Source: Escherichia coli
GTDB taxonomy: Bacteria > Pseudomonadota > Gammaproteobacteria > Enterobacterales > Enterobacteriaceae
Assembly: GCF_050920415.1 (NCBI RefSeq)
Contig: NZ_CP169309.1
Direction: 5' to 3' (one strand)
DNA length: 64,000 nt
Part shown: positions 2,996 through 45,603 of the stretch, in pieces
Layout: each line of letters opens with the position of its first letter
How positions within the stretch are numbered: position 1 is the first letter of the stretch
Notes under the pieces: model-generated
The model's database searches: none
Told to the model about the DNA's origin: nothing
What the model saw: only the letters and a program-made list of their open reading frames with translations
Position numbers and translations under genes: made by a program

Positions 2996-4204
2996 CGTCC
3001 GCGAAATTACCGACGCAATTACGCAGGCAATCAATAAACCGGGGAGTAGCTGATACTCGCCGGTCATTTCACATATCATCAACGTCGACATAATCGGCGC
3101 GTGCGTGGTTGCCGCCAACAGTGTCGCCATCCCGGTTAATCCGAGTAAGAGTGTAATTTCTTCGCCGTCAGGAAACCATAACCCCAGGCTACGTCCATAC
3201 AACATGCCAATGGCAAGACCGATAAAGAGTGTCGGTGTAAACACACCACCAGGCGCGCCGGAACCGCTACTTGCCAGAACGGCAAACAGTTTGCAAAGGA
3301 AGATCCCGCCAATGATCATAAACAGTGGCGGGGCGGTTAAAAAGGATTGTACGGTGCTATAGCCGTTGCCCCACACGGCGGGGGTGAACAGGGAAAGCAG
3401 ACCCACGATCAACCCGCCGAGTGCCAGTTGCCAGGGGGGCGCAAGTTTGAGAATAACAAATCCTCGATGACTGGCGTTCATTAACGTTAACAACACTGGT
3501 CCGCATAGACCTGCCAGCACACCTGTACTGATAATCAGCGCATAGTCACGAGCCTGAACCGTCACTGAGAGTTGTACGCTGTAGAGTAACGCGTCGCTAT
3601 GATTAATCAGATTGCTAACCAGCAACGCCACGACGGCGGAAATAATCACCGGGCCGAGAGAGGCCAACATCATAGTGCCAAACAGCACTTCGGCTATAAA
3701 TAAACTGTCAGCAAGCGGGGCGCGGTAAGCCGCAGCCATTCCCGCCGCAGCTCCACAGGCAATCCATAATTTCCACTCCTGGCGTGGCGTAAAACGCTGA
3801 GCAAAACAGGAGGCGGCAAGGGCAGCTAAAAGAATCATCGCACCTTCGCGACCAATTGCGCTGCCGCTAGTTACTACCAGCAGAGAGGCAAGCGATTTAA
3901 CCAGGCTTGCTGCGTAATCGAATTTACCATCGGTTTGCAACGCTTCCATGTAATCGGTCGGCGCATGAGGGCGTTGCTGGGTAAATTTCTGCCAGCCCAT
4001 CAACAACAAACCCGCCGCCAGTCCGCCGAGCGCCGGAGTTAGCAGCCGTCGCCACGGAGAAAGATTCGTCGCTGCATTGACCAGACTGCCGGAGTCATTA
4101 TTGAGGAACAGCCATTCCAGTAGCAGCATCGCGTGACGAAACGCGGCAACGGCAAAGGCCGCAAGAATACCGACTATTGTTGCGATAAGCAGACGGCGAA
4201 ACAT
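2948..4204 (-). CDS. clcB: ClC-family voltage-gated chloride channel
   Basis: 418 aa from Met21 of ORF 2948..4264; multi-TM protein with ClC selectivity motifs (GSGIP-like, GREG); 3' end overlaps ynfK convergently. Confidence 0.9.
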
Positions 4205-4397
4205 AGTACGCAGATCCGGATAGCTGTGTAGATGGTGCATGAGCAGAAATGGACAATGAAACACGAGCGACTATTTTGCGGCAAAACAGGTTATCGGCAA
4301 AAGCAGTGCGTGCTTAAAGCGATAAAATACGTGACGTTGTAACGTATTATTGCCGAATGACGCGTGATTGTCGCCATTCGGCAATATTGCGGCAACT

Positions 4398-5012
4398 TTA
4401 TCGAAACAGTGGTTTAACCGCGACAGGAATCAACAGTTGTGATTGCCATTGCGCCAGCGTTAAGCGAGCCAGTTCACCCAGCGCACGGTAGAAAGGGTGT
4501 TCTGCTTTTTCGATAAAAACGTCGAGAAAACGTGTTGACCACGGAAAAAGATGCCATGCCAGCAATTCTTCACATTCTGTTTGGCGACCATTCTCCGCCA
4601 ACCACGCAGCCATCAACAGCAGTGAACCAAAATGATCTTCCGGTTCGTTTTGCTTCATTTCGAACTGAATGCCTTTCTCGCGCATCCATTGACGAAGTGC
4701 CAATGTTGAATCGCCAAACAGCACAGATTCGCGATCCAGCCAGACCGACCCCCACGGCGGAGACGGCAGTGCCCACGGGCCGACAAACAAACGCTGCCAG
4801 GCCTGGGCGCGAGTCTCTTCACTCTGTGCCTGAAAAGCCGTCACCAGCGGCGCTAATGACGCTTCTGGTAGAGGCCACTGAGTTTCCCAGCCGTCACTGG
4901 TGAGTACCGCAACCAGAGGTGCGGCTTCCGCACTCTCTGGAGCGTAATAAAACAGCGCGCCCAACACGCGCGCCGCGACAGAAAAATTATCTTGCTGTGA
5001 AAAATGGGTCAT
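4398..5012 (-). CDS. dmsD: Tat proofreading chaperone DmsD
   Basis: 204 aa from Met4 of ORF 4398..5021; recognised DmsD/TorD-family sequence; sits downstream of ynfEFGH. Confidence 0.9.
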   Translation of the reverse strand: MTHFSQQDNFSVAARVLGALFYYAPESAEAAPLVAVLTSDGWETQWPLPEASLAPLVTAFQAQSEETRAQAWQRLFVGPWALPSPPWGSVWLDRESVLFGDSTLALRQWMREKGIQFEMKQNEPEDHFGSLLLMAAWLAENGRQTECEELLAWHLFPWSTRFLDVFIEKAEHPFYRALGELARLTLAQWQSQLLIPVAVKPLFR

Positions 5013-32017: not shown

Positions 32018-33067
32018 GTGCGGGTATTACTTCGACCTGTACCGGTACCGGAACTCGGGGTGGTTATCGTTAAGCCAGGCCGTGAATCAATGTCGGTATT
32101 CCATAACGACAGAGTACTGGTGGAGCCGGAACCAAAAAGCATGCGCGGTCTGCCGTCCGGAGTCGTCCCTACCGTTCGCCAGCCGCTGGCGGAGGATAAA
32201 TCATTACTGCCGTTTTTCAGTAACAAACGAGTGATTCGTGCTGCTGGCGGCGCTGGTGCACTGTCTGACTGGTTACTGCGCCATGTCAAATCCTGCCAGT
32301 GGCCTCATGGTGATTACCACCATAGTGAAACCGTTATTCACCGTTACGGTACCGGCGCGATGGTATTGTGCTGGCACTGCGACAACCAGCTGCGCGACCA
32401 GACATCGGAATCACTCGAGCAACTTGCTCAACAAAATCTGACAGCCTGGATGCTTGAGGTTATACGTCACGCAATGAATGGCACGCAGGAGCGGGAATTA
32501 TCGCTGGCTGAATTATCCTGGTGGGCGGTTTGCAATCAGGTGGTGGATGCTCTACCTGAGGCAGTATCACGTCGTTCGTTGGGATTACCGGTGGAAAAAA
32601 TCCTCTCTGTGTATCGCGAGAGCGACATCGTACCGGGAGAACAGACAGCCACCAGCATACTGAAGCAGCGCACAAAAAATATTGCGCTACCGCCTCACGT
32701 CCACCAGCAACAAAACTCACCACAGGAAAAGGCGGTGGTAAGCATCGCCGTTGATCCTGAGTCCCCGGAATCTTTCATGAAGCGACCTAAACGTCGCCGT
32801 TGGGTAAATGAGAAATACACACGCTGGGTAAAGACACAGTCGTGTGCGTGCTGTGGTAAGCCAGCTGACGATCCCCATCACCTGATAGGTCATGGTCAGG
32901 GCGGAATGGGAACAAAGGCCCACGATATTTTCACGTTACCGTTGTGTCGTAAACATCATAACGAGCTTCATGCAGAACCGTTGGCGTTCGAAGAAAAGCA
33001 TGGTTCTCAGGTTGATTTAATTTTTCGTTTTCTTGATCACGCCTTTGCAACCGGCGTGCTCGGATAA
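32018..33067 (+). CDS. ydfU: DUF968-family prophage protein YdfU-like
   Basis: 349-aa ORF; C-terminal Cys/His cluster (CACCGKPADDPHHLIGHGQGGMGTKAHD...CRKHHNELH); same length and position as K-12 Qin YdfU. Confidence 0.85.
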   Translation: MRVLLRPVPVPELGVVIVKPGRESMSVFHNDRVLVEPEPKSMRGLPSGVVPTVRQPLAEDKSLLPFFSNKRVIRAAGGAGALSDWLLRHVKSCQWPHGDYHHSETVIHRYGTGAMVLCWHCDNQLRDQTSESLEQLAQQNLTAWMLEVIRHAMNGTQERELSLAELSWWAVCNQVVDALPEAVSRRSLGLPVEKILSVYRESDIVPGEQTATSILKQRTKNIALPPHVHQQQNSPQEKAVVSIAVDPESPESFMKRPKRRRWVNEKYTRWVKTQSCACCGKPADDPHHLIGHGQGGMGTKAHDIFTLPLCRKHHNELHAEPLAFEEKHGSQVDLIFRFLDHAFATGVLG

Positions 33068-33076
33068 AAGAGGTTA

Positions 33077-33439
33077 TTGATGGGGATAGAATTTGTTTTG
33101 CCTTACCCGCCGACGGTAAATACCTACTGGCGTCGTCGTGGCAGCACATATTTTGTATCAAAAGCAGGGGAGCGTTATCGCCGGGATGTGGCGCTTATTG
33201 TTCGCCAGCAGCGGCTGAAATTAAATCTGTCCGGAAGGCTGGCAATAAAAATTATTGCAGAGCCACCGGATAAGCGCCGTCGTGACCTGGACAATATTCT
33301 GAAAGCACCACTGGATGCACTGACACATGCGGGACTGCTTATCGACGACGAGCAGTTTGATGAAGTTAATATTATGCGCGGTCAGGTTGTTCCCGGTGGT
33401 CGGCTGGGGATAAAAATCACAGAACTGGAGTGCGCATGA
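33077..33439 (+). CDS. rusA: RusA-family Holliday junction resolvase
   Basis: 120-aa ORF; RusA catalytic core with RRRDLDNILKAPLDAL. Confidence 0.9.
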   Translation: MMGIEFVLPYPPTVNTYWRRRGSTYFVSKAGERYRRDVALIVRQQRLKLNLSGRLAIKIIAEPPDKRRRDLDNILKAPLDALTHAGLLIDDEQFDEVNIMRGQVVPGGRLGIKITELECA

Positions 33440-34101
33440 ATAACCAGTATTTACAGTTTGTGCGTGAGCAGCTCACGATCGCCACCGCTGATTTGAGTGG
33501 AGCAACAAAAGGTCAGCTTGAAGCCTGGCAGGAGAATGCCATGTTCAATACAGGGCGTTACAGACGTAAAAAAATCCGGTACCGCGATAAGGTCACTGGA
33601 AAAATAGTAACGCTGGATAATCCACCGATCCCGGGAAAGCAATCGCTGGCGAAAGGTTCATCAATTGCCCTGGTCAGTCCGGTTGAGTTTTCGACATCAT
33701 CATGGCGACGCGCCGTTCTGTCTCTTGAAGAACATCATAAAGCCTGGCTGCTGTGGTGTTACAGCGGTAGCATTTGCTGGGAGCATCAGATCGCGATAAC
33801 GCAGTGGGCGTGGATTGAATTTAATGCTCAATCCGGTACCAGAAAAATTGCAGGAAAAACTCTGGTGCGCCTGAAGACGTTGAGCTGGTTGGCGGCGCAG
33901 GCGGTAAAAGCTGAGCTTTTTGGTGGGGAAGGTTACGAATACCAGGAACTGGCGTTACTGGTGGGAGTAACAACCAAAAACTGGTCCAAGACATTTACTG
34001 GTCACTGGGTTGCAATGAAACACATTTTTCATCGGCTGGATAGTGAAGCTTTATTGTTAGTGGAGAGAACACGTTCAAAACAAAAGGCGGCATTTTCATA
34101 G
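33436..34101 (+). CDS. putative late-gene antiterminator (Q-like, QuuQ-type)
   Basis: 222 aa immediately downstream of rusA and upstream of a promoter plus terminator pair typical of pR'/tR'; assignment by position, not motif. Confidence 0.6.
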   Translation: MNNQYLQFVREQLTIATADLSGATKGQLEAWQENAMFNTGRYRRKKIRYRDKVTGKIVTLDNPPIPGKQSLAKGSSIALVSPVEFSTSSWRRAVLSLEEHHKAWLLWCYSGSICWEHQIAITQWAWIEFNAQSGTRKIAGKTLVRLKTLSWLAAQAVKAELFGGEGYEYQELALLVGVTTKNWSKTFTGHWVAMKHIFHRLDSEALLLVERTRSKQKAAFS

Positions 34102-34108
34102 CAAAGTA

Positions 34109-34137
34109 TTGCAAAAGTAGATTAAAACGCATATATT
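34109..34137 (+). promoter_or_regulatory. candidate late promoter pR' (approximate)
   Basis: TTGCAA-17 nt-TATATT just after the Q-like gene and about 55 nt before the tR'-like terminator. Confidence 0.45.
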
Positions 34138-34190
34138 TCGTGTAAATCTGATATTTTGCCGTTTTTATACGTGATGGCAAAGCTAGTAAA

Positions 34191-34215
34191 ACCCGCGACC
34201 GAGCGGGTTTTTTAT
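34191..34215 (+). terminator. tR'-like rho-independent terminator (approximate)
   Basis: CCCGC-gaccga-GCGGG followed by TTTTTT. Confidence 0.6.
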
Positions 34216-34355
34216 CCCCCCAAAAAATGGCATAGACATTAAACGTGATGACGATTGTGCCAATACTTTCTCCATCAATGACGCCCCTTGACTGCATGGA
34301 ATCCAATTTGTTATGTAATATGTGTTGATATTTTTGAGTTGTTAATGGTGTTACT

Positions 34356-35069
34356 ATGAATGACAGTGCTCTGCTCAGAAACTCTTCACTTTTTGTTGCT
34401 TATATGGGCTGTCTAGGATGGGGAAGCGCTTATTTCTATGGATGGGGTACTTCATTTTACTATGGCTTTCCATGGTGGGTTGTCGGGGCTGGTGTCGATG
34501 ATGTTGCACGAAGTTTGTTTTATGCTGTGACAGTTATCGTTATATTCCTTATTGGATGGGGAGTTGGTATTGTTTTCTTTTTGGGCATAAAACAAAAGCG
34601 CAATATACAAAATTTGAGTTTTATCCGGCTTTTTCTCGCGATATTGCTGCTTTTTATTCCACCTGTTCTGGAGTTTTCGGTAATTCATCAGCATGTTGAG
34701 CCAGATGTACTGATTTTCTGCATTCTTGCTGCCTTTACAATCACGCTTTTTGTCAGGTCTGGAAGAAGACTTGTTTCAGTCAAATGTTTTTCGGAAATGT
34801 CTTTTATTCGCCATCACCGAATTGAGTTCATGATGGCTGGGTTTATGATTTATTTCTGGGCATTCTCTCTTATTGCCGGTTGGTACAAACCACAGTTTAA
34901 GAGGGAATATCAGGCGATCCACTATGAGAATGTATGGTATTACATTATTGCGCGTTATGATGATCGTCTGGTGTTATCGAAATCATACAGGAGTGGGGGT
35001 AAGAAATTCGTTATATTTAATAGCGGAAATATTAATGATTTTGAAATTAATACTATCAGAGTGCGTTAA
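34356..35069 (+). CDS. polytopic membrane protein (moron downstream of Q)
   Basis: 237-aa ORF in AT-rich DNA; about 6 hydrophobic helices; own promoter-like TTGACT-17-TTATGT upstream; T-rich terminator downstream. Confidence 0.55.
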   Translation: MNDSALLRNSSLFVAYMGCLGWGSAYFYGWGTSFYYGFPWWVVGAGVDDVARSLFYAVTVIVIFLIGWGVGIVFFLGIKQKRNIQNLSFIRLFLAILLLFIPPVLEFSVIHQHVEPDVLIFCILAAFTITLFVRSGRRLVSVKCFSEMSFIRHHRIEFMMAGFMIYFWAFSLIAGWYKPQFKREYQAIHYENVWYYIIARYDDRLVLSKSYRSGGKKFVIFNSGNINDFEINTIRVR

Positions 35070-35243
35070 AATTTCTTGAGTAATGAAGATTTTTACTGCC
35101 CGGCATTGAGCGGTTTTTTTATGCCAGAAAAATGGTGTGGTACATAAAATGTGCTGGTGGTTATTAATACCGGTCTTTCAGCTTGCTGGCTTTTTCGACA
35201 AGAGTTATTGGTATGTCACGTTAACCAATAAAGAGAAAAAGAC

Positions 35244-35441
35244 ATGCTAAAACAGCAGGATATGACCGAAACAGCCAGAGTGGTGTTTAATGAATTAAGC
35301 GTCACTGAACCGGCAACAGTTGGGGAAATTGCGCAGAATACTTACCTTTCACGCGAACGCTGCCAGTTAATACTGACCCAGCTTGTGATGGCGGGTCTGG
35401 CAGATTATCAGTTCGGTTGTTACAGACGCCTTCCGCAGTGA
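35244..35441 (+). CDS. small hypothetical protein, possible winged-helix
   Basis: 65-aa ORF upstream of the methyltransferase gene. Confidence 0.4.
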   Translation: MLKQQDMTETARVVFNELSVTEPATVGEIAQNTYLSRERCQLILTQLVMAGLADYQFGCYRRLPQ

Positions 35442-35591
35442 AGGCTTTTTACTTTGTGGTAATGGGCGGCTGGTGGGTGTTAGCGGCACCTGCCAGCCAT
35501 CTGCTCATGTGTTGAGGTCACAAGCAAACCTCAGGCCCATCTGCTTTGCGCAAAAGCGGTATGAGCCTATCAGAGAAGTGCTTATTGATCT

Positions 35592-36677
35592 ATGGCTAAT
35601 ACTGTAAAAATATCCAGTTGTGAGTTAATCAACACTGATTGCCTGGAATTTATCCAGACCTTATCGGAAAACTCTGTCGATCTTATAGTCACAGACCCGC
35701 CATATTTTAAAGTGAAGCCCGAGGGCTGGGATAACCAGTGGAAGGGCGACGATGATTACCTAAAATGGCTGGACCAGTGTCTGGCTCAGTTCTGGCGGGT
35801 ACTGAAGCCTGCCGGAAGTCTTTACCTGTTTTGTGGTCATCGCCTGGCATCTGATATCGAAATCATGATGCGTGAGCGCTTTAATGTGCTGAACCACATT
35901 ATCTGGGCGAAGCCGTCCGGACGCTGGAACGGGTGCAACAAAGAAAGCCTGCGGGCGTATTTCCCGGCAACAGAGCGCATTCTGTTTGCCGAACATTATC
36001 AGGGGCCATATCAGCCAAAAAATGCCGGCTATGCGGCAAAGGAGCGCGAGCTTAAACAACACGTCATGGCCCCGCTGATTTTTTACTTTCGTGATGCGCG
36101 TGAATCACTGGGAATAACGTCCAAACAGATAGCGGAAGCCACCGGAAAGAAAAACATGGTGTCGCACTGGTTTGGTACCAGTCAGTGGCAGTTACCGAAC
36201 GAAGCTGATTACAGAAAACTGCAGGCGCTGTTCGCGCGTGTTGCAGAAGAAAAACACCAGCGTGGGGAGCTGGCAACGCCACACCAACTGCTGGTCAGCA
36301 CATACAGTGAACTGAACCGGCAATATGCCAGTCTGCTTGAGGAATACAAATCTCTGCGGCGTTATTTTTCTGTATCGGCCGCCGTTCCTTATACGGATGT
36401 CTGGACGCATAAGCCCGTACAGTATTATCCGGGTAAGCATCCCTGCGAAAAACCGGCGGATATGTTGCGTCAGATAATTTCTGCCAGCAGTCGTCCGGGG
36501 GATGTGGTTGCGGATTTTTTTATGGGATCGGGGGCAACAATAAAAGCAGCAATGGGATTGGGGCGTCGCACGATTGGGGTTGAACTTGAGTCCGGGCGTT
36601 TTGAACAAACAGTTGGTGAAATATTGGTGCTGAACGATAAATTGCGAAATGCACAATTAGATAAGAACAGGAGCTAA
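35592..36677 (+). CDS. beta-class DNA methyltransferase (N6-adenine or N4-cytosine), orphan
   Basis: 361-aa ORF; motif IV DPPY near N-terminus (LIVTDPPYF) and motif I near C-terminus (DVVADFFMGSGAT); no adjacent restriction gene. Confidence 0.85.
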   Translation: MANTVKISSCELINTDCLEFIQTLSENSVDLIVTDPPYFKVKPEGWDNQWKGDDDYLKWLDQCLAQFWRVLKPAGSLYLFCGHRLASDIEIMMRERFNVLNHIIWAKPSGRWNGCNKESLRAYFPATERILFAEHYQGPYQPKNAGYAAKERELKQHVMAPLIFYFRDARESLGITSKQIAEATGKKNMVSHWFGTSQWQLPNEADYRKLQALFARVAEEKHQRGELATPHQLLVSTYSELNRQYASLLEEYKSLRRYFSVSAAVPYTDVWTHKPVQYYPGKHPCEKPADMLRQIISASSRPGDVVADFFMGSGATIKAAMGLGRRTIGVELESGRFEQTVGEILVLNDKLRNAQLDKNRS

Positions 36678-37197
36678 TCCTCGATTAATATCTAAGCCAA
36701 GCAGGATGCTTGGAAGTTCTGATATATTCTTATCGTTTTTCGGTATTTAAAACTGATTTTCGCTGGTTGCGAAAGCACGTGGTCGGGCACTGCGTTCACA
36801 CATGCAGGAGGGTGTGAAGTCAGCTTTTTTTCTGTGTATTCAGATGGCGTTCTGATTCTATAACGAGTTACGTGGACATCAGGGATGGAGAGAATAGGAA
36901 CGCCATCTTAATACATTTTCCCCGTTTATTTGATATATCTTCCGGATAAGGGATTAGGTCTGGTTTTTTATGTCATTCAATAACGCTCTTCTATACTGTA
37001 TACAATACTTTATCCTGGCAGTGTGTTTAAAACCTGAACTTATCCTTTGTTTCGTTTATAGACAGAAGGGTTAATATCGACTTATCATCAGCAGGATGGC
37101 AACAGATGTGTAAGCAGCTGGTCACCAGTTATACTTCAGTGGTACTTCTGAGTGCTTCTCTCCGTGAAATGATTATCATCCAGATGACAGGAGTAGA

Positions 37198-37476
37198 GTG
37201 AATATTGATGATATTTCCAGGTGCTCCAGCTTGTTGCAGCGTATTGAGGATGTTAATGCTGAACGAGCCAGGGCCTTTAGTCGTTTGACAGTTATATTTT
37301 CTACCCCTGATCGCCTTTCAGGAAAGAACATTGTTTTATTAAACAGTGATGCCATCCATAAGGTTTTTGAAGAGTTCATGGCTGCTAATTCAGAATTGCT
37401 GGCTCTTGTTGAGGAATACAACGAGATAGCCAGCCGTGTCGGTATGGATGAATTCAACGTCATACTTCGTGGATAA
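37198..37476 (+). CDS. hypothetical protein
   Basis: 92-aa ORF followed by a strong terminator. Confidence 0.4.
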   Translation: MNIDDISRCSSLLQRIEDVNAERARAFSRLTVIFSTPDRLSGKNIVLLNSDAIHKVFEEFMAANSELLALVEEYNEIASRVGMDEFNVILRG

Positions 37477-37499
37477 AAACATGCTTCATATTTTCTGTT

Positions 37500-37524
37500 A
37501 GCTCGCTACGGCGAGCTTTTTTTG
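37500..37524 (+). terminator. rho-independent terminator (approximate)
   Basis: AGCTCGC-tacg-GCGAGCT followed by a T-run. Confidence 0.55.
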
Positions 37525-37657
37525 TATCTGAGCCACACCTGGCGCACATCAAAAACACAGAGCCTTTCAGGAGGTGCTTACGGGATTGTCAGTGTGACTT
37601 TCACTGTGGGCTGGTAACCATCTGGCGCAGGCTCGTCTACGCAAAGGAAAAGTCACG

Positions 37658-38083
37658 ATGTTAGGTATTTTCAAAAAGAAAACCCGCAAGGCCATCACAG
37701 AAGTGAAGAAGATGGAGAACCGTGATGCGGTGGAGGCGACCGTCTGGGGCGCATATTCCATTGCATATGCCGACGGCACCTGCGATGCGAAAGAAATCGC
37801 AGTACTGGAGAAAACTATTGCTGCGCTTCCTGCTTTTGCACCGTTCTCTGGTGAGATTGCCCAGATGAGCGCCAATATCCGCGCCCGTTATGAAGCGTCA
37901 CCGCGTAGTGCGAATGCGCATGCATTGCGTGAGCTGGCTGATGTGGCGGGGACAACTGAGGCGGTTGACGTGCTTTGCCTCTGTCTGGATATCGCTGATC
38001 AGGATGGCATTGGTCCGGATGAAGAAGCGCAGCTCAAGAAAATTGCACAGGCGCTTCAGTTACCACTGGAGCAGTATCTGTGA
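37658..38083 (+). CDS. TerB-like (tellurite-resistance TerB family) protein
   Basis: 141-aa ORF; two D-G-x-x-D-x-x-E-like segments (YADGTCDAKEIAVLE, DQDGIGPDEEAQL). Confidence 0.5.
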   Translation: MLGIFKKKTRKAITEVKKMENRDAVEATVWGAYSIAYADGTCDAKEIAVLEKTIAALPAFAPFSGEIAQMSANIRARYEASPRSANAHALRELADVAGTTEAVDVLCLCLDIADQDGIGPDEEAQLKKIAQALQLPLEQYL

Positions 38084-38232
38084 AAAGTGCGGGCCTTGTG
38101 CTGGCTGCCATCCTGTTGTTTCTGGTAGTGGCAGTGGATTTCACTGGATGGCTGATGTCGGTACTGGCTGATGGTGTGCTGGTGGCGATGGTAACGGTCT
38201 TACTCTGGCCTTTACTTCGCAAATCTGAATAA
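38080..38232 (+). CDS. small hydrophobic protein (about 50 aa), possible lysis-associated membrane protein (weak call)
   Basis: GTG overlapping the stop of the TerB-like gene; VKSAGLVLAAILLFLVVAVDFTGWLMSVLADGVLVAMVTVLLWPLLRKSE; below ORF-track size cutoff. Confidence 0.3.
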   Translation: MKSAGLVLAAILLFLVVAVDFTGWLMSVLADGVLVAMVTVLLWPLLRKSE

Positions 38233-38317
38233 ACAGCCTACAAAAGGTATCTGCGGGTACCTTTGATAAAGTTTTTTAGGGCCGCTGATGGTCCTTTTTA
38301 TTTACAGGAGAATAAAT

Positions 38318-38710
38318 ATGTCTGAACCCTTATCCGGTTCCGGCACTGCTGTGGCGCTCGGCGGGGCGACGGTATTCGGGCTGTTTACCGGGACGGATTT
38401 CGGGATTGTATTTGGTGCGTTCGCTGGTGCGTTATTTGTGGCAACAATGCCGCAGACACTTTCAGCCTGGCGTGTGGCTGCACATTTTCTGGTGTCCTTT
38501 ATTGTTGGTGTGCTTGGGGCCCGTGGTGTGGCCGGTTACATGGCGGAACGTATTGGGTTTAACAGTGCTTCCGTTGATGCGTTGTGTGCGGTCCTGGTGT
38601 CGGTGCTCTCAGTAAAAGTCCTGTCATTCATCCACCAGCAGGAGATTACATCACTGGTATCCGGTCTGTTCTCCCGTCAGCGTGGAGGAGGTGGTGGTAA
38701 TGACAAATAA
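38318..38710 (+). CDS. putative holin (multi-TM lysis protein)
   Basis: 130 aa from Met11 of ORF 38288..38710 with GGAGA RBS; Gly/Ala-rich TM helices; directly upstream of endolysin. Confidence 0.6.
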   Translation: MSEPLSGSGTAVALGGATVFGLFTGTDFGIVFGAFAGALFVATMPQTLSAWRVAAHFLVSFIVGVLGARGVAGYMAERIGFNSASVDALCAVLVSVLSVKVLSFIHQQEITSLVSGLFSRQRGGGGGNDK

Positions 38711-38978
38711 TCTTCCAGGATTACTGAATGCGGCGTTATGTACGGTTATCGTACTGACGCTTTTTTTCTACCGCAGAAAAGAGTCCCGACACAAACCGCT
38801 GATATCGTGGTGCGCCTGGTGTCTGATGCTGTTGTATGCGATAACGCCGTTAAGTTATCTCTGTGGTCATCCGTTGCCGGCAGACTGGCTGGTAGTGATG
38901 CTGAACCTGGTGTTTGGTGTCATGGTAGTGCGTGCGCGCGGTAATGTTTCAAAAATTTTTGCTTTCCTGAGTGGCTGA
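38700..38978 (+). CDS. second lysis-cassette membrane protein (holin or antiholin-like)
   Basis: 92 aa from Met7 of ORF 38682..38978; GGAGGAGG RBS; three hydrophobic segments; overlaps the holin stop and endolysin start. Confidence 0.5.
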   Translation: MTNNLPGLLNAALCTVIVLTLFFYRRKESRHKPLISWCAWCLMLLYAITPLSYLCGHPLPADWLVVMLNLVFGVMVVRARGNVSKIFAFLSG

Positions 38979-38979
38979 T

Positions 38980-39525
38980 ATGAAATCGAGAGATGAAATT
39001 TTTGATGAAATCCTCGGAAAAGAGGGGGGGTATGTCAGTCATCCTGACGATACAGGCGGAGCGACGAAGTGGGGAATTACTGAAAAAGTGGCGCGCGCGC
39101 ATGGTTACCGTGGTGATATGCGTGATTTGAGCCGCGGGCAGGCTCTGGAAATCCTTGAGGCAGACTATTGGTATGGACCTCGTTTTGACCAGGTGGCAAA
39201 CCTGTCTCCTGATATTGCTGCAGAACTGTGTGATACCGGGGTAAACATGGGGCCGTCGGTAGCCACAAAAATGCTTCAGCGCTGGCTGAATGTGTTTAAT
39301 CAGAAGGGAATGCTGTATCCGGACATAGTTACAGACGGGGGGATCGGGCCGCGAACCATTAATGCGTTACGTTCTTATCTGAAAAATCGCGGCAGGGATG
39401 GCGAACTGGTACTGGTGAAAGCCCTGAACTGTACGCAGGGTGAGCGTTATCTGGCGCTGGCAGAGAAACGCGAGGCTAACGAGTCGTTTGTCTATGGCTG
39501 GATGAAAGAGCGCGTTGGTTTATAA
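38980..39525 (+). CDS. endolysin, glycoside hydrolase family 108 N-acetylmuramidase with C-terminal peptidoglycan-binding domain
   Basis: 181 aa; GH108 signature EGGYVSHPDDTGGATKWGIT near N-terminus. Confidence 0.8.
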   Translation: MKSRDEIFDEILGKEGGYVSHPDDTGGATKWGITEKVARAHGYRGDMRDLSRGQALEILEADYWYGPRFDQVANLSPDIAAELCDTGVNMGPSVATKMLQRWLNVFNQKGMLYPDIVTDGGIGPRTINALRSYLKNRGRDGELVLVKALNCTQGERYLALAEKREANESFVYGWMKERVGL

Positions 39526-39537
39526 ACTCATCGAAAA

Positions 39538-39562
39538 GGTCACTTCGGTGGCTTTTTTATTG
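39538..39562 (+). terminator. rho-independent terminator after endolysin (approximate)
   Basis: GGTCAC-TTCG-GTGGC with UUCG tetraloop followed by TTTTTT. Confidence 0.45.
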
Positions 39563-39726
39563 TTCAAAAAACGAAAGAACGGAGGTACGTATGTACGCAC
39601 TGAAAAAGATTACGGTAACTGAAGATGGTCGTCAGTAGACTGGCCCCCTGAATCTCCAGACAACCAGTATCACTTAAATAAGTGATAGTCTTAATACTAG
39701 TTTTTAGACTAGTCATTGGAGAACAG

Positions 39727-40092
39727 ATGATTGATGTCTTAGGGCCGGAGAAACGCAGACGGCGTACCACACAGGAAAAGATCGCAATTGTTCAGCAGAG
39801 CTTTGAACCGGGGATGACGGTCTCCCTCGTTGCCCGGCAACATGGTGTAGCAGCCAGCCAGTTATTTCTCTGGCGTAAGCAATACCAGGAAGGAAGTCTT
39901 ACTGCTGTCGCCGCCGGAGAACAGGTTGTTCCTGCCTCTGAACTTGCTGCCGCCATGAAGCAGATTAAAGAACTCCAGCGCCTGCTCGGCAAGAAAACGA
40001 TGGAAAATGAACTCCTCAAAGAAGCCGTTGAATATGGACGGGCAAAAAAGTGGATAGCGCACGCGCCCTTATTGCCCGGGGATGGGGAGTAA
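39727..40092 (+). CDS. insC: IS2 transposase InsC (OrfA)
   Basis: 121 aa from [18 protein letters not shown]...; recognised IS2 InsC. Confidence 0.9.
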
Positions 40093-40955
40093 GCTTAGTC
40101 AGCCGTTGTCTCCGGGTGTCGCGTGCGCAGTTGCACGTCATTCTCAGACGAACCGATGACTGGATGGATGGCCGCCGCAGTCGTCACACTGATGATACGG
40201 ATGTGCTTCTCCGTATACACCATGTTATCGGAGAGCTGCCCACGTATGGTTATCGTCGGGTATGGGCGCTGCTTCGCAGACAGGCAGAACTTGATGGTAT
40301 GCCTGCAATCAATGCCAAACGTGTTTACCGGATCATGCGCCAGAATGCGCTGTTGCTTGAGCGAAAACCTGCTGTACCGCCATCGAAACGGGCACATACA
40401 GGCAGAGTGGCCGTGAAAGAAAGCAATCAGCGATGGTGCTCTGACGGGTTCGAGTTCTGCTGTGATAACGGAGAGAGACTGCGTGTCACGTTCGCGCTGG
40501 ACTGCTGTGATCGTGAGGCACTGCACTGGGCGGTGACTACTGGCGGCTTCAACAGTGAAACAGTACAGGACGTCATGCTGGGAGCGGTGGAACGCCGCTT
40601 CGGCAACGATCTTCCGTCGTCTCCAGTGGAGTGGCTGACGGATAATGGTTCATGCTACCGGGCTAATGAAACACGCCAGTTCGCCCGGATGTTGGGACTT
40701 GAACCGAAGAACACGGCGGTGCGGAGTCCGGAGAGTAACGGAATAGCAGAGAGCTTCGTGAAAACGATAAAGCGTGACTACATCAGTATCATGCCCAAAC
40801 CAGACGGGTTAACGGCAGCAAAGAACCTTGCAGAGGCGTTCGAGCATTATAACGAATGGCATCCGCATAGTGCGCTGGGTTATCGCTCGCCACGGGAATA
40901 TCTGCGGCAGCGGGCTTGTAATGGGTTAAGTGATAACAGATGTCTGGAAATATAG
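40050..40955 (+). CDS. insD: IS2 transposase InsD (OrfB, DDE)
   Basis: 301-aa ORF; recognised IS2 InsD; overlaps insC for -1 frameshift fusion. Confidence 0.9.
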
Positions 40956-41236
40956 GGGCAAATCCAGTCAGGTTGAGGAAGTGCATGTCCTGGGGGGATA
41001 TGTATCGTATGGAGTTTTACCCGCGTAATACCCATCTGGCAGCAAAAATTGAGTATTGCCGGAACGGGAATATTTCATGTTTGCAGGTAGAGAAAACGGA
41101 TGAGGCTTATATCACTACGCTGAACGGCGATACGATGTCAGCGCCAATGATATAAGACAGTAATTCACCATTTGGATTGTCCGCTCCACCCAACATGTTG
41201 TTTCCTTAAGGTTCCTACACCACAAAGGGAACACTC

Positions 41237-43202
<1,966 letters not shown>

Positions 43203-43419
43203 TGACCAATAGCGGACATTAAAAATGGCGAAAAACGGCCAATAATCTTGGCGTTGACAACGATGCGTTGCATCTGTCGCGGCGACAGTAAAGCCCGGAA
43301 TGAAATGGCCAGATGTCGTACTCATACCAGTGAATAACAAGTAAAACCCCGGCGGCTGAAACAACCAAGGGGTTAACAGTGTAAATAAAACTGCCCATAT
43401 TGATGGGCAGCGCATGTAA

Positions 43420-43713
43420 TTATTGTGAGCAATAGACCCGAGCTTCAAGCGGAGTATAAATGCCTAAAGTAATAAAACCGAGCAATCCATTTACGAATGT
43501 TTGCTGGGTTTCAGTTTTAACAACTTTATCTGCGCCACCACAAATTTTGGCTGCATCGACAGTTTTCTTCTGACCAATTCCTGAAACGAAGAAATGATGA
43601 GTGATGGTTTCCTTCGGTGTTACTGTTGTAGGTTTGTTTTCAACTGTAAACGTCTGTTGAGCACATCCAGAGATAAGCAGCGCCAGTGTGAAAGTGAGTA
43701 GCGTTTTTTTCAT
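43420..43713 (-). CDS. bor: Bor lipoprotein (serum-resistance protein of lambdoid phages)
   Basis: 97 aa; lipobox LLISGC; near-identical over most of its length to recalled lambda Bor. Confidence 0.9.
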   Translation of the reverse strand: MKKTLLTFTLALLISGCAQQTFTVENKPTTVTPKETITHHFFVSGIGQKKTVDAAKICGGADKVVKTETQQTFVNGLLGFITLGIYTPLEARVYCSQ

Positions 43714-43937
43714 CGTGTGATTCCCGTTGTGTTTTTAAGTTTGGTGCATCGTATTTGTGGAAATTTAAACAAAACCTAAACAATGAGTTGAAATCTCATA
43801 TTGTTAATGTTTATTAAAGTATGCCAGATGTGCTGTATCTTTACTGTATACCCAGATTAACTATGGCCACAGCACCGACTGGTAACTCCTGTGTGGGAGT
43901 GCCGGCTACTGAGGCGGATCAAACCGGACGTTATGGT

Positions 43938-44348
43938 TTAGCGTGGAAAAATTTGAGTCGTGTTCTGGATGCTTTCGGTAAACAATAATGAGTTGTCAAA
44001 GGTATAGTAATATCTTTTGTGTTCGTGGATATTTGTAACCCATCGGAAAACTCCAGCTTTAGCCAGATTTACCCTGTATTCATGAAATGTGATTTCTCTT
44101 GATTTCAACTTATGAAGGTAAGTTTCTATAAGTCGCGTGTCTCTGCAAAAGCTAACATGAATAACATCATGGAAACCTTTTATTAACACCGTGTTATCGC
44201 TCTCAAATACAATGTGAATATTACCTGTGGCTAAATAGTAAATGTAATGTGAGACATTGTGGCGTTTTAGTTCAGAGTAAAACCGGTCACAGTTTAAATC
44301 TTTCCGCACTTGATCAAATATTTCTTTAAAAATGGCAACCTGAGCCAT
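43938..44348 (-). CDS. DUF1398-family protein (YbcV-like)
   Basis: 136-aa ORF adjacent to bor, same arrangement as borD-ybcV in DLP12. Confidence 0.65.
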
Positions 44349-44908
44349 CAGTATCCCCTTGTATATGATATGAGGGGCGTAGTCTGCATGAGTGCTTTTA
44401 ATACTGCAATCTGGTCAGATGTCTTTATCGTATATTGATGATTATTGTCGGATAGTATGAGGTTTTCTCAACTCATGGAAATACCGGAAGGTGCGAAAAT
44501 TACTAAGTAAGAAGAGTTACATAAGCCCTTCATACAGTGAAGGGCTTATGTAATCTTAGAAATAAAAAACCGGTCATAGGGAGCTACACAGAACCGGTCG
44601 GCGAAGACCGCCAATACCACCCATGCATCGATGCAACATACTAATGACAATAGCTGCTATTGATGTAAATGCAATGTTATGCATCGACGAAAATAAAAAA
44701 CCGGCAGGGGAAATCCATTGAAGACTTGCCGGTGGCAAAAGTTGCCAATGCTTTTATAACCGTAGTCACAGAGTTACGAAGTGCAACACCGACTGCTGCT
44801 GGTATATGGATGAATGGCGTTTCAATGATGTGCATCATTCAAATCACAAATAGTATTGATACTTATTCTCGGTTTTGCGGGTCCTTTCCGGTGATCCGGC
44901 AGGCTACG

Positions 44909-44920
44909 GGGCGGCGACCT
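44909..44920 (+). other. cos site: 12-nt cohesive-end sequence GGGCGGCGACCT (cosN), with cosB-like region extending toward nu1
   Basis: GGGGCGGCGACCTAGCGGGTTTTCGCTATTTA matches the lambda cos region; about 200 bp upstream of the small terminase gene. Confidence 0.75.
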
Positions 44921-45125
44921 AGCGGGTTTTCGCTATTTACGAGTTTTTTTGAGGTGATGGTTGTTGTTTTATCGTTTGATATATCTACTTGATAAGTAAT
45001 AAGAAAGAAAAATAAACACAACAACCTGATGATCTTTCTTATACGAAAAAGCATGTAAAATCAGAGGGTTTTACAAAAAACGTGGTTGTTGTATTGCTTT
45101 TTTGCCGGTGGTTTATGGAGGGGCT

Positions 45126-45603
45126 GTGGCCTTTTTATTGAATAAAAGCGACATGGCCTCCTCCATCGGTATCTCAGTACAGGCATTTGATAAATGGGGT
45201 GTTCCTCCTGTTGAGCGCCGGGGGAGAGAGGTTTTCTATGACGTTAAAACTGTACTGGAGATAGATCGCGAGCGACGTCAACAAAACCAGAAATCTTCAG
45301 GTGGTGAAAATGATCTTGAGGAAAGGCTACTTCAGGCCAGGGTTAACCTGACGGAAGAACAGGCTATTGCTCAGCGGTTAAAAAACCAGGTTGCAGAGCA
45401 TAAGGTGATTGATACAGCTTTCTCTATTTTTGCCCTGTCCCGGTTATCCGGAGAACTGGCATCTGTTTTGGACAGTATTCCGCTTTCGATGCAAAGAAAA
45501 TTCCCTGAATTGACAGGCAGACAATTGGCTTATCTAAAAGAGCTGGTTGCGAAGGGGGCTAATAAATGCGTTGAGTCCGCTGAAAAAATGAAGGAATTTG
45601 CGG

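Follow-up and report, generated by a model that had tools for sequence, protein, structure and literature searches.

A P1-type tciAB gene pair, probably cargo, ahead of a phiP27-type lysis cassette in a lambda-like Escherichia coli prophage

What is a gene of the tellurite resistance family TerB doing directly upstream of phage lysis genes? The question is raised by positions 37,658 to 39,562 of a 64,000-nucleotide (nt) stretch of the Escherichia coli contig NZ_CP169309.1 (assembly GCF_050920415.1), in the following referred to as the window. An initial annotation of this locus described a lysis cassette different from the S-R-Rz genes of lambda, consisting of a 130-amino-acid (aa) holin candidate with several transmembrane (TM) segments, an overlapping 92-aa membrane protein and a GH108 muramidase. 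The cassette is preceded by a TerB-family gene and an overlapping 50-aa hydrophobic open reading frame (ORF), which were regarded as an unusual neighbour for lysis genes.

Our analysis suggests that the region is the promoter-distal part of a late operon of a lambda-like prophage, presumably transcribed under antitermination by Q, and that it is composed of two independent modules. We are fairly confident in an architecture where the TerB-like gene and its small partner, here called tciA and tciB, form a cargo cassette beside a lysis cassette of the type found in phage phiP27. The locus is an ordinary one: the type of lysis cassette, the accessory pair of the P1 type and the cargo slot that holds it are all known.

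Gene content of the region

All five ORFs were confirmed on the plus strand (Table 1). Each of them scores above the gathering score of a curated Pfam family, and the PHROGs assignments agree. The ratio of nonsynonymous to synonymous substitution rates (dN/dS), calculated against relatives, is 0.05–0.40 for the four small genes. This indicates purifying selection, and the four are therefore real coding genes. NCBIfam gave no match for the small proteins. The initial annotation was borne out for every gene. The cassette has holin families different from those of lambda, a GH108 enzyme and no Rz/Rz1; the 130-aa and 92-aa membrane proteins belong to the families Phage_holin_8 and Phage_holin_3_7; and the 50-aa ORF is a DUF3927 gene that overlaps the TerB gene. 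The described region ends at 39,562, just past a terminator-like hairpin at 39528–39551.

The TerB-like protein and its membrane partner

TciA matches the Pfam family TerB with 30.9 bits (cutoff 24.4), a partial match over residues 11–57, and phrog_632, annotated as tellurite resistance, with 2.5e-65. A single-sequence phmmer search with TciA against the PDB gave no match. A profile of 96 full-length family members, compared with the structure of TerB from Klebsiella pneumoniae (PDB 2JXU), gave an end-to-end match with an E value of 1e-27, covering residues 8–143 of 144 positions. The motif A-x-A-D-G...E is found twice in TciA, as in TerB, and a hydropathy scan of TciA revealed no hydrophobic helices. 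These similarities indicate that TciA is a full-length TerB homologue with an all-helical fold, predicted to be a soluble, cytoplasmic protein of six helices. The family is small: at E ≤ 1e-3, a set of 1.84 billion representatives yielded 166 clusters.

The fold and the repeated motif are shared with TerB of the terZABCDE tellurite resistance operon. That operon contains the full ter set, whereas tciA is accompanied by a gene for a tiny membrane protein, and terC, terD, terE, terZ and terA are all missing from the locus. Because the other ter proteins are absent, the phenotypes of ter operons are not transferable to TciA.

TciB matches DUF3927 with 51.3 bits (cutoff 25, E value 1.1e-13) and phrog_1470, annotated as TciB-like, with 8.4e-22. 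The GTG start codon of tciB overlaps the stop codon of tciA in the sequence GTGA (38080–38083), which implies that the translation of the two genes is coupled. Two hydrophobic helices were identified in TciB by the hydropathy scan, and dN/dS of the gene is 0.17–0.40. TciB may consequently be pictured as a membrane hairpin of two helices that is produced together with TciA.

One could object that the TerB match is spurious and that the small ORFs are chance occurrences, considering that the Pfam match is modest and covers only part of TciA, and that the phmmer search of the PDB was empty. This objection is refuted by the profile match to 2JXU, the Pfam gathering scores, the dN/dS values below one and the conserved DUF3927 partner, which is present even beside a TciA homologue of 26% identity. 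We discount it almost entirely.

The closest named relatives are encoded by phage P1. TciA is 87% identical to P1 TciA at the protein level (tblastn), and TciB is 43% identical to P1 TciB, a member of the same DUF3927/phrog_1470 family. The two P1 genes have the same order and are likewise adjacent and coupled, and by these resemblances we assign the pair to the P1 tciA/tciB type. The tci gene pair has carried its name since the P1 genome, where the genes were named by homology. The surroundings differ. In P1 the pair lies between tRNA genes in the C1-controlled ban operon, where it is followed by a third small gene, tciC, and where the 140-nt leader described below is missing, whereas the pair in the window lies directly upstream of the holins in what appears to be a Q-dependent late operon.

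More distant homologues show the same arrangement. A DUF3927 gene overlaps the end of the tciA homologue in the N4-like phage TR2 (28% identity) and in an uncultured phage (26% identity), and across homologues of 26–38% identity either a DUF3927 gene or another small membrane ORF overlaps the stop codon. This suggests an ancient and tightly coupled pair. Two cases deserve mention. In Pseudomonas phage AF an unannotated 73-aa ORF with a single TM segment (3432–3653) overlaps the stop codon of a TerB-like gene, and a protein collection contains a natural TciA-DUF3927 fusion protein of 196 aa (P0054). Both cases support the idea that TerB-like genes of phages are regularly accompanied by a small membrane partner.

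Position and distribution of tciAB

The interval between Q and the holin genes is the place where lambdoid late operons classically carry cargo, as is familiar from Shiga toxin (Stx) phages. In phages with the same holins as the window, the segment from Q or the DNA methylase to holin 1 contains stx2e (phiP27), the pertussis-like toxin genes eplBA (Rac-SA53) or tRNA genes (SerU-LTIIb); what is said here and below of Rac-SA53 and SerU-LTIIb, both type II heat-labile enterotoxin (LT-II) prophages, is taken from their GenBank annotations. The tciAB pair thus occupies exactly the slot that holds Shiga toxin 2e in phiP27.

The same position was found on inspection of six deposited Q-encoding phages. 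In pPE4, Fostie and Klebsiella phage 1 LV-2017 the pair stands ahead of the same holin families as in the window, whereas in JLK-2012, PPyecE_EH1910 and Evi it stands ahead of unrelated holins of the lambda S type. A sample of 80 loci from IMG/VR, in all of which TciA is at least 94% identical, gave a similar picture. Most of these loci have the order tciA, tciB, holin 1, holin 2 and then a gene for either a GH108 enzyme or an M15 endopeptidase, while about 11 of the 80 have tciA and tciB followed by an S-like holin gene. At least five types of Q and two types of endolysin flank the module in this sample. Of 5426 complete E. coli genomes, 159 (about 3%) carry the intact block of tciA, tciB, holin 1 and holin 2, out of 396 with any match; in roughly half of the matching genomes, as estimated from ranking position, the holin pair occurs without tciAB. 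The four-gene block is moreover already annotated in RefSeq, in identical copies, and in a deposited phage. The description of the pair as an unusual neighbour does not hold up against its recurrence in the six phages, most of the IMG/VR loci and 159 E. coli genomes.

Outside the lambdoid phages the pair has other neighbours. In P1, an N4-like phage, an SSU5-like phage-plasmid and an uncultured phage it is located among early or replication genes, far from the lysis genes, which argues for an association with the slot and not with lysis. tciAB is therefore tied to the slot, and probably to expression in the lytic phase, rather than to a particular lysis system. TciA and TciB span P1-like, N4-like, jumbo, SSU5-like and lambdoid phages, and are accompanied in the lambdoid ones by an unusually conserved leader.

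Comparison with phiP27 (NC_003356) revealed that 94 nt from the 3' end of tciB persist there in frameshifted form, at 4487–4579, between stxB2e and the first holin gene. This remnant matches window positions 38138–38231, and its local alignment score is 32.5, against 8.7 ± 1.1 for shuffled sequences. It implies an older arrangement of tciAB and holins, in which tciA and the 5' portion of tciB gave way to the stx2e operon. The acquisition of the toxin can in this way be dated relative to that arrangement.

Terminator-like hairpins on the plus strand were found at 35428, 37500, 38278 and 39528; the first stands ahead of the methylase gene, the second ahead of the tciA leader, the third ahead of holin 1 and the last behind the endolysin gene. 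A hairpin followed by a T-run stands ahead of the leader in all lambdoid contexts inspected, with a sequence that varies among contexts. The hairpins at 38243–38264 and 38278–38295 accompany the holin module, also in phages that have no tciAB. The pair is bracketed in this manner by terminator-like hairpins on both sides, as in morons, and a sigma-70-like promoter was not found in its leader. We regard tciAB as cargo in a moron slot, not as a textbook autonomous moron.

The leader upstream of tciA

A non-coding leader of 140 nt separates the upstream hairpin from tciA. Among lambdoid phages it is 79–96% identical between tciA alleles that share only 63–67% nt and 43–45% aa identity, and it is kept across 59 distinct upstream contexts. 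It contains variable poly-G and poly-C tracts. The tciA genes of P1 and pJN2-26 are not preceded by the leader.

No sigma-70-like promoter was found in the leaders of the window, pPE4, Fostie and JLK-2012, even when only 7 of 12 matches were required, and inspection by eye, the only search made for them, revealed no consensus for sigma-54, sigma-E or sigma-32. Since the leader has no sigma-70-like promoter, tciAB is probably read together with the holins in the Q-antiterminated late transcript.

Other explanations for the leader were considered. No Rfam family matches it. A structured RNA obtained a z score of -1.2 in a single-sequence fold and a covariation term of only -0.65 in RNAalifold. 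A structure of 23 pairs, built by hand, was 95% pair-compatible, showed zero compensatory double changes and was not better than column shuffles. We reject the view that a structured RNA has been demonstrated, but retain the idea as a lead. A leader peptide was also rejected, as the AGGAGG-like motif in the leader of the window is not conserved in relatives.

A truncated form of the leader occurs in the PPompW prophages of O157-type strains (PPompW_132418, LC567822, 4501–6026). These prophages keep no more than the terminator and the leader's first half, directly joined to the IS110-family element ISEc20 and then to the terminase genes, and they lack tciAB as well as the entire lysis cassette.

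The lysis cassette

The best start of holin 1 is the ATG at 38318, which follows CAGGAGA. The protein matches Phage_holin_8 with 79.5 bits and has three to four hydrophobic segments according to the hydropathy scan. The holin 2 gene starts at an ATG (38700) preceded by GGAGGAGG and overlaps holin 1 by 11 nt; its product matches Phage_holin_3_7 with 75.2 bits. It has three TM segments and a basic loop, RRKESRHK, after the first of them, from which an N-out/C-in topology is predicted. Longer starts were considered for both genes, giving proteins of 140 aa for holin 1 and 98 aa for holin 2. They were rejected, as the upstream ATG reads GTG, out of frame, in relatives and has no Shine-Dalgarno sequence; relatives do not share the 140-aa start, at 38288. 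Both proteins are small, with predicted TM segments and a charged C-terminus, belong to holin Pfam families and are encoded next to an endolysin gene. The 92-aa membrane protein is accordingly best described as a second holin-family protein, which resembles class I holins in its three predicted TM segments.

Holin 1 is a homologue of L28 of phiP27 and of holin1 of Rac-SA53, and holin 2 is a homologue of L29 of phiP27. In porcine Shiga toxin-producing E. coli, deletion of a 130-aa putative holin (WP_032083190), encoded downstream of stx2e at the position that corresponds to holin 1, abolished the enrofloxacin-induced release of Stx2e, and expression of the protein in trans from a plasmid restored it (PMC12571312). 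WP_032083190 is likely homologous to holin 1, judging from its size, family, position and primer sequence rather than from an alignment.

The endolysin gene starts 2 nt after the stop codon of holin 2, at an ATG (38980), and ends at 39525. Its product matches Glyco_hydro_108 (2e-25) and PG_binding_3 (9.5e-25), and carries the EGGY motif of GH108 enzymes of the N4 gp61 type, KEGGYVSHPDDTGG in the translation. The NCBIfam model for a holin-associated N-acetylmuramidase gave 74 bits against a cutoff of 240, so that the protein is not that exact equivalog. Because the hydropathy scan found no hydrophobic segment, the endolysin has neither a signal peptide nor a signal-arrest-release (SAR) anchor, and it is therefore predicted to depend on the holins.

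No recognisable spanin, be it an i-/o-spanin pair or a u-spanin, was found by a lipobox scan of ORFs of 25–250 aa over 16–64 kb of the window. The sole lipobox ORF in this interval is the lipoprotein gene bor, which leaves no candidate for an o-spanin or a u-spanin. In a published survey about 13% of phages had no spanins, and phiP27 has its own very short spanins (PMC6139136). The GH108 versions of the cassette have no recognisable spanin, and they add a genetically tractable E. coli case to the study of lysis without spanins.

The cassette compares well with those of phiP27 and the LT-II prophages. In phiP27 the same overlapping holin pair, L28 and L29, is present in the same order with about 79% nt identity, and in Rac-SA53 and SerU-LTIIb the entire succession of holin 1, holin 2 and GH108 endolysin matches at about 80% nt identity. 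All three also have the same terminator hairpin and ribosome-binding region before holin 1, and the same place after Q and a DNA methylase gene. phiP27 differs from the window: an M15-type L-Ala-D-Glu endopeptidase replaces the GH108 enzyme, as also in phage pPE4, and spanins are present, whereas none were found in the window. We assign the cassette from these matches to the phiP27/LT-II-prophage type. This type is already known, and has reportedly been described since 2002.

The resemblance to lambda is one of layout. The S-R-Rz/Rz1 genes have the same place in the genome, after Q and the late promoter pR' and before bor and the terminase genes, the same holin-endolysin logic and a cytoplasmic endolysin. 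The holin families are unrelated, and lambda has a dual-start S instead of two holin genes, the transglycosylase R instead of a GH108 muramidase, and Rz/Rz1 where none were found in the window.

A rearranged version of the cassette is seen in SerU-LTIIb (KU052038). A duplicated holin 1 (holin1a) and a partial holin 2 at 2032–2456 are separated by tRNA genes from the complete cassette at 3744–4395. The duplication indicates that the region around holin 1 is recombinationally active.

Possible roles of TciAB

We propose the following model for the two modules. The terminator hairpin, the 140-nt leader, tciA and tciB would constitute a mobile cargo cassette. TciB would tether TciA to the inner membrane, and the complex would act during lytic growth, independently of the type of holin and not as a component of the lysis machine. 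It could be a TerB-type buffer against envelope, ion or membrane-potential stress, or an exclusion factor; any such specific biochemical role is offered with low confidence. In the second module, holin 1 and holin 2 would build up in the inner membrane and perforate it, so that the cytoplasmic GH108/PG_binding_3 muramidase could cross and degrade the murein.

Several observations weigh against this model or leave parts of it unsupported. Most of the 80 close IMG/VR relatives keep tciAB joined directly to the two holin genes in combination with differing Q and endolysin genes, which could reflect a functional coupling and not just adjacency. The model does not account for the strong conservation of the leader, which exceeds that of the tciA coding sequence, or for the breach of the outer membrane by a cassette with no recognisable spanin. 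Expression of tciAB in the late phase only is deduced from a missing consensus promoter, and should be read as a prediction. The tciABC genes of P1 were non-essential in a CRISPR interference screen, which fits a cargo role yet says nothing on the mechanism (PMC10695390).

The conserved linkage to the holins could mean that all four genes form one lysis module, with TciA and TciB as a dedicated regulator of the two-holin system, be it an antiholin-like factor or a device for lysis timing or lysis inhibition. It could, for example, stabilise the membrane potential and so prevent premature triggering of the holins. The intact block in 159 complete E. coli genomes fits this idea, as does the phiP27 remnant, which suggests that the tciAB-holin state is ancestral. 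So does general background, since ter operons confer resistance to pore-forming colicins and some phages, that is, protection against insults to the membrane potential, and holins are triggered by depolarisation. Against it, the holin pair is found alone in roughly half of the matching E. coli genomes, in Rac-SA53 and SerU-LTIIb, and in phiP27, which keeps just the decayed tciB fragment. In addition, tciAB precedes unrelated holins of the lambda S type, or lies among early and replication genes in P1, the N4-like phage, phage-plasmids and the uncultured phage. Since TciA is so similar in all 80 loci, their shared gene order may reflect recent common descent. We consider a regulatory role in lysis unlikely. 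A bolder variant joins this idea to the leader: terminator, leader and tciAB would be a self-contained late unit, the leader an undescribed cis-regulatory RNA, and a membrane-tethered TerB complex would guard the membrane potential and so set or protect the trigger time of the two holins. It is a long shot. If true, it would introduce a new class of accessory for lysis timing, and the unit would be the ancestral occupant of a slot later taken by stx2e in phiP27-type phages.

The homology of TciA to TerB, the terminators that bracket the cassette as in classical morons, and the expectation from which the P1 gene names stem would all agree with a determinant of lysogenic conversion or defence. 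Such a pair would be expressed in the repressed prophage and protect the host from colicins, tellurite or oxidative stress, or superinfecting phages. Without a sigma-70-like promoter in the leader, however, and with a terminator upstream of it, the pair should stay silent in the lysogen. The other ter genes are absent, none of the six proteins searched matched a PADLOC defence model, and the pair is also carried by strictly lytic phages. A role in the lysogen therefore seems quite improbable, and cargo expressed in the lytic phase, beside a phiP27-type lysis cassette, remains the reading that we prefer.

Surrounding sequence

The features of the region and its surroundings are listed in Table 1. 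The promoter-like site just 3' of Q presumably represents pR'. Between the methylase gene and the leader, at 36678–37524, lies an AT-rich segment (about 40% GC) with a promoter-like site, the phrog_2873 ORF, annotated in RefSeq as a hypothetical protein, and a clean terminator (37500–37517). This segment looks like a separate textbook moron, or small cargo gene, just upstream of tciAB. ARAGORN found no tRNA gene in the whole window, unlike in several sister phages, and an Rfam search over 33000–45500 gave no match at E ≤ 0.1.

Table 1. Features of the late region and flanking sequence, in window coordinates
Feature	Position	Strand	Remarks
Late antiterminator Q	33430..34101	+	Pfam Phage_antiter_Q, 3.6e-89
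Promoter-like site	34109-34137		TTGCAA-17-TATATT; just 3' of Q
237-aa ORF	between Q and bor	+	function unassigned
DNA methyltransferase	35592-36677	+	
Promoter-like site	37059-37088		10/12 matches; upstream of 92-aa phrog_2873 ORF
92-aa ORF	37198..37476	+	phrog_2873
Intrinsic-terminator-like hairpin	37500..37524	+	AGCTCGC-TACG-GCGAGCT + T-run
Conserved non-coding leader	37518..37657	+	140 nt
tciA	37658..38083	+	141 aa; TerB; PHROG tellurite resistance
tciB	38080..38232	+	50 aa; DUF3927; PHROG TciB-like
Two hairpins between tciB and holin 1	38243..38300	+	38243-38264; terminator-like 38278-38295 with T-run
holin 1	38318..38710	+	130 aa; Phage_holin_8; PHROG holin
holin 2	38700..38978	+	92 aa; Phage_holin_3_7; PHROG holin
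endolysin	38980..39525	+	181 aa; Glyco_hydro_108 + PG_binding_3; PHROG endolysin
Terminator-like hairpin after endolysin	39528..39561	+	hairpin 39528-39551 + T-run
Remains of 95-aa soluble ORF	39591..41137	+	phrog_33497; not a spanin
IS2	39636-40971		1331 bp + 5-bp duplication GTCAG; 110 bp downstream of endolysin
IS21-family element (putative)	41138..43265	+	2128 bp; istA/istB-like ORFs; 1.6 kb downstream of endolysin
bor lipoprotein gene	43420..43713	-	sole lipobox ORF in window 16-64 kb

Downstream of the endolysin the sequence has been disturbed by two insertions. One is the insertion sequence (IS) IS2, and the other, of 2128 bp, appears from its ORF translations to belong to the IS21 family. 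The phrog_33497 ORF is split by IS2 and truncated by the insertion at 41138, and it is frameshifted even in an uninterrupted relative. Both fall into a stretch of about 170 bp of original sequence, and the lysis genes are thereby set apart from bor and the terminase genes. The prophage of E. coli MB07081, otherwise 100% identical, has neither of them; IS2 and the IS21-family element were inserted later.

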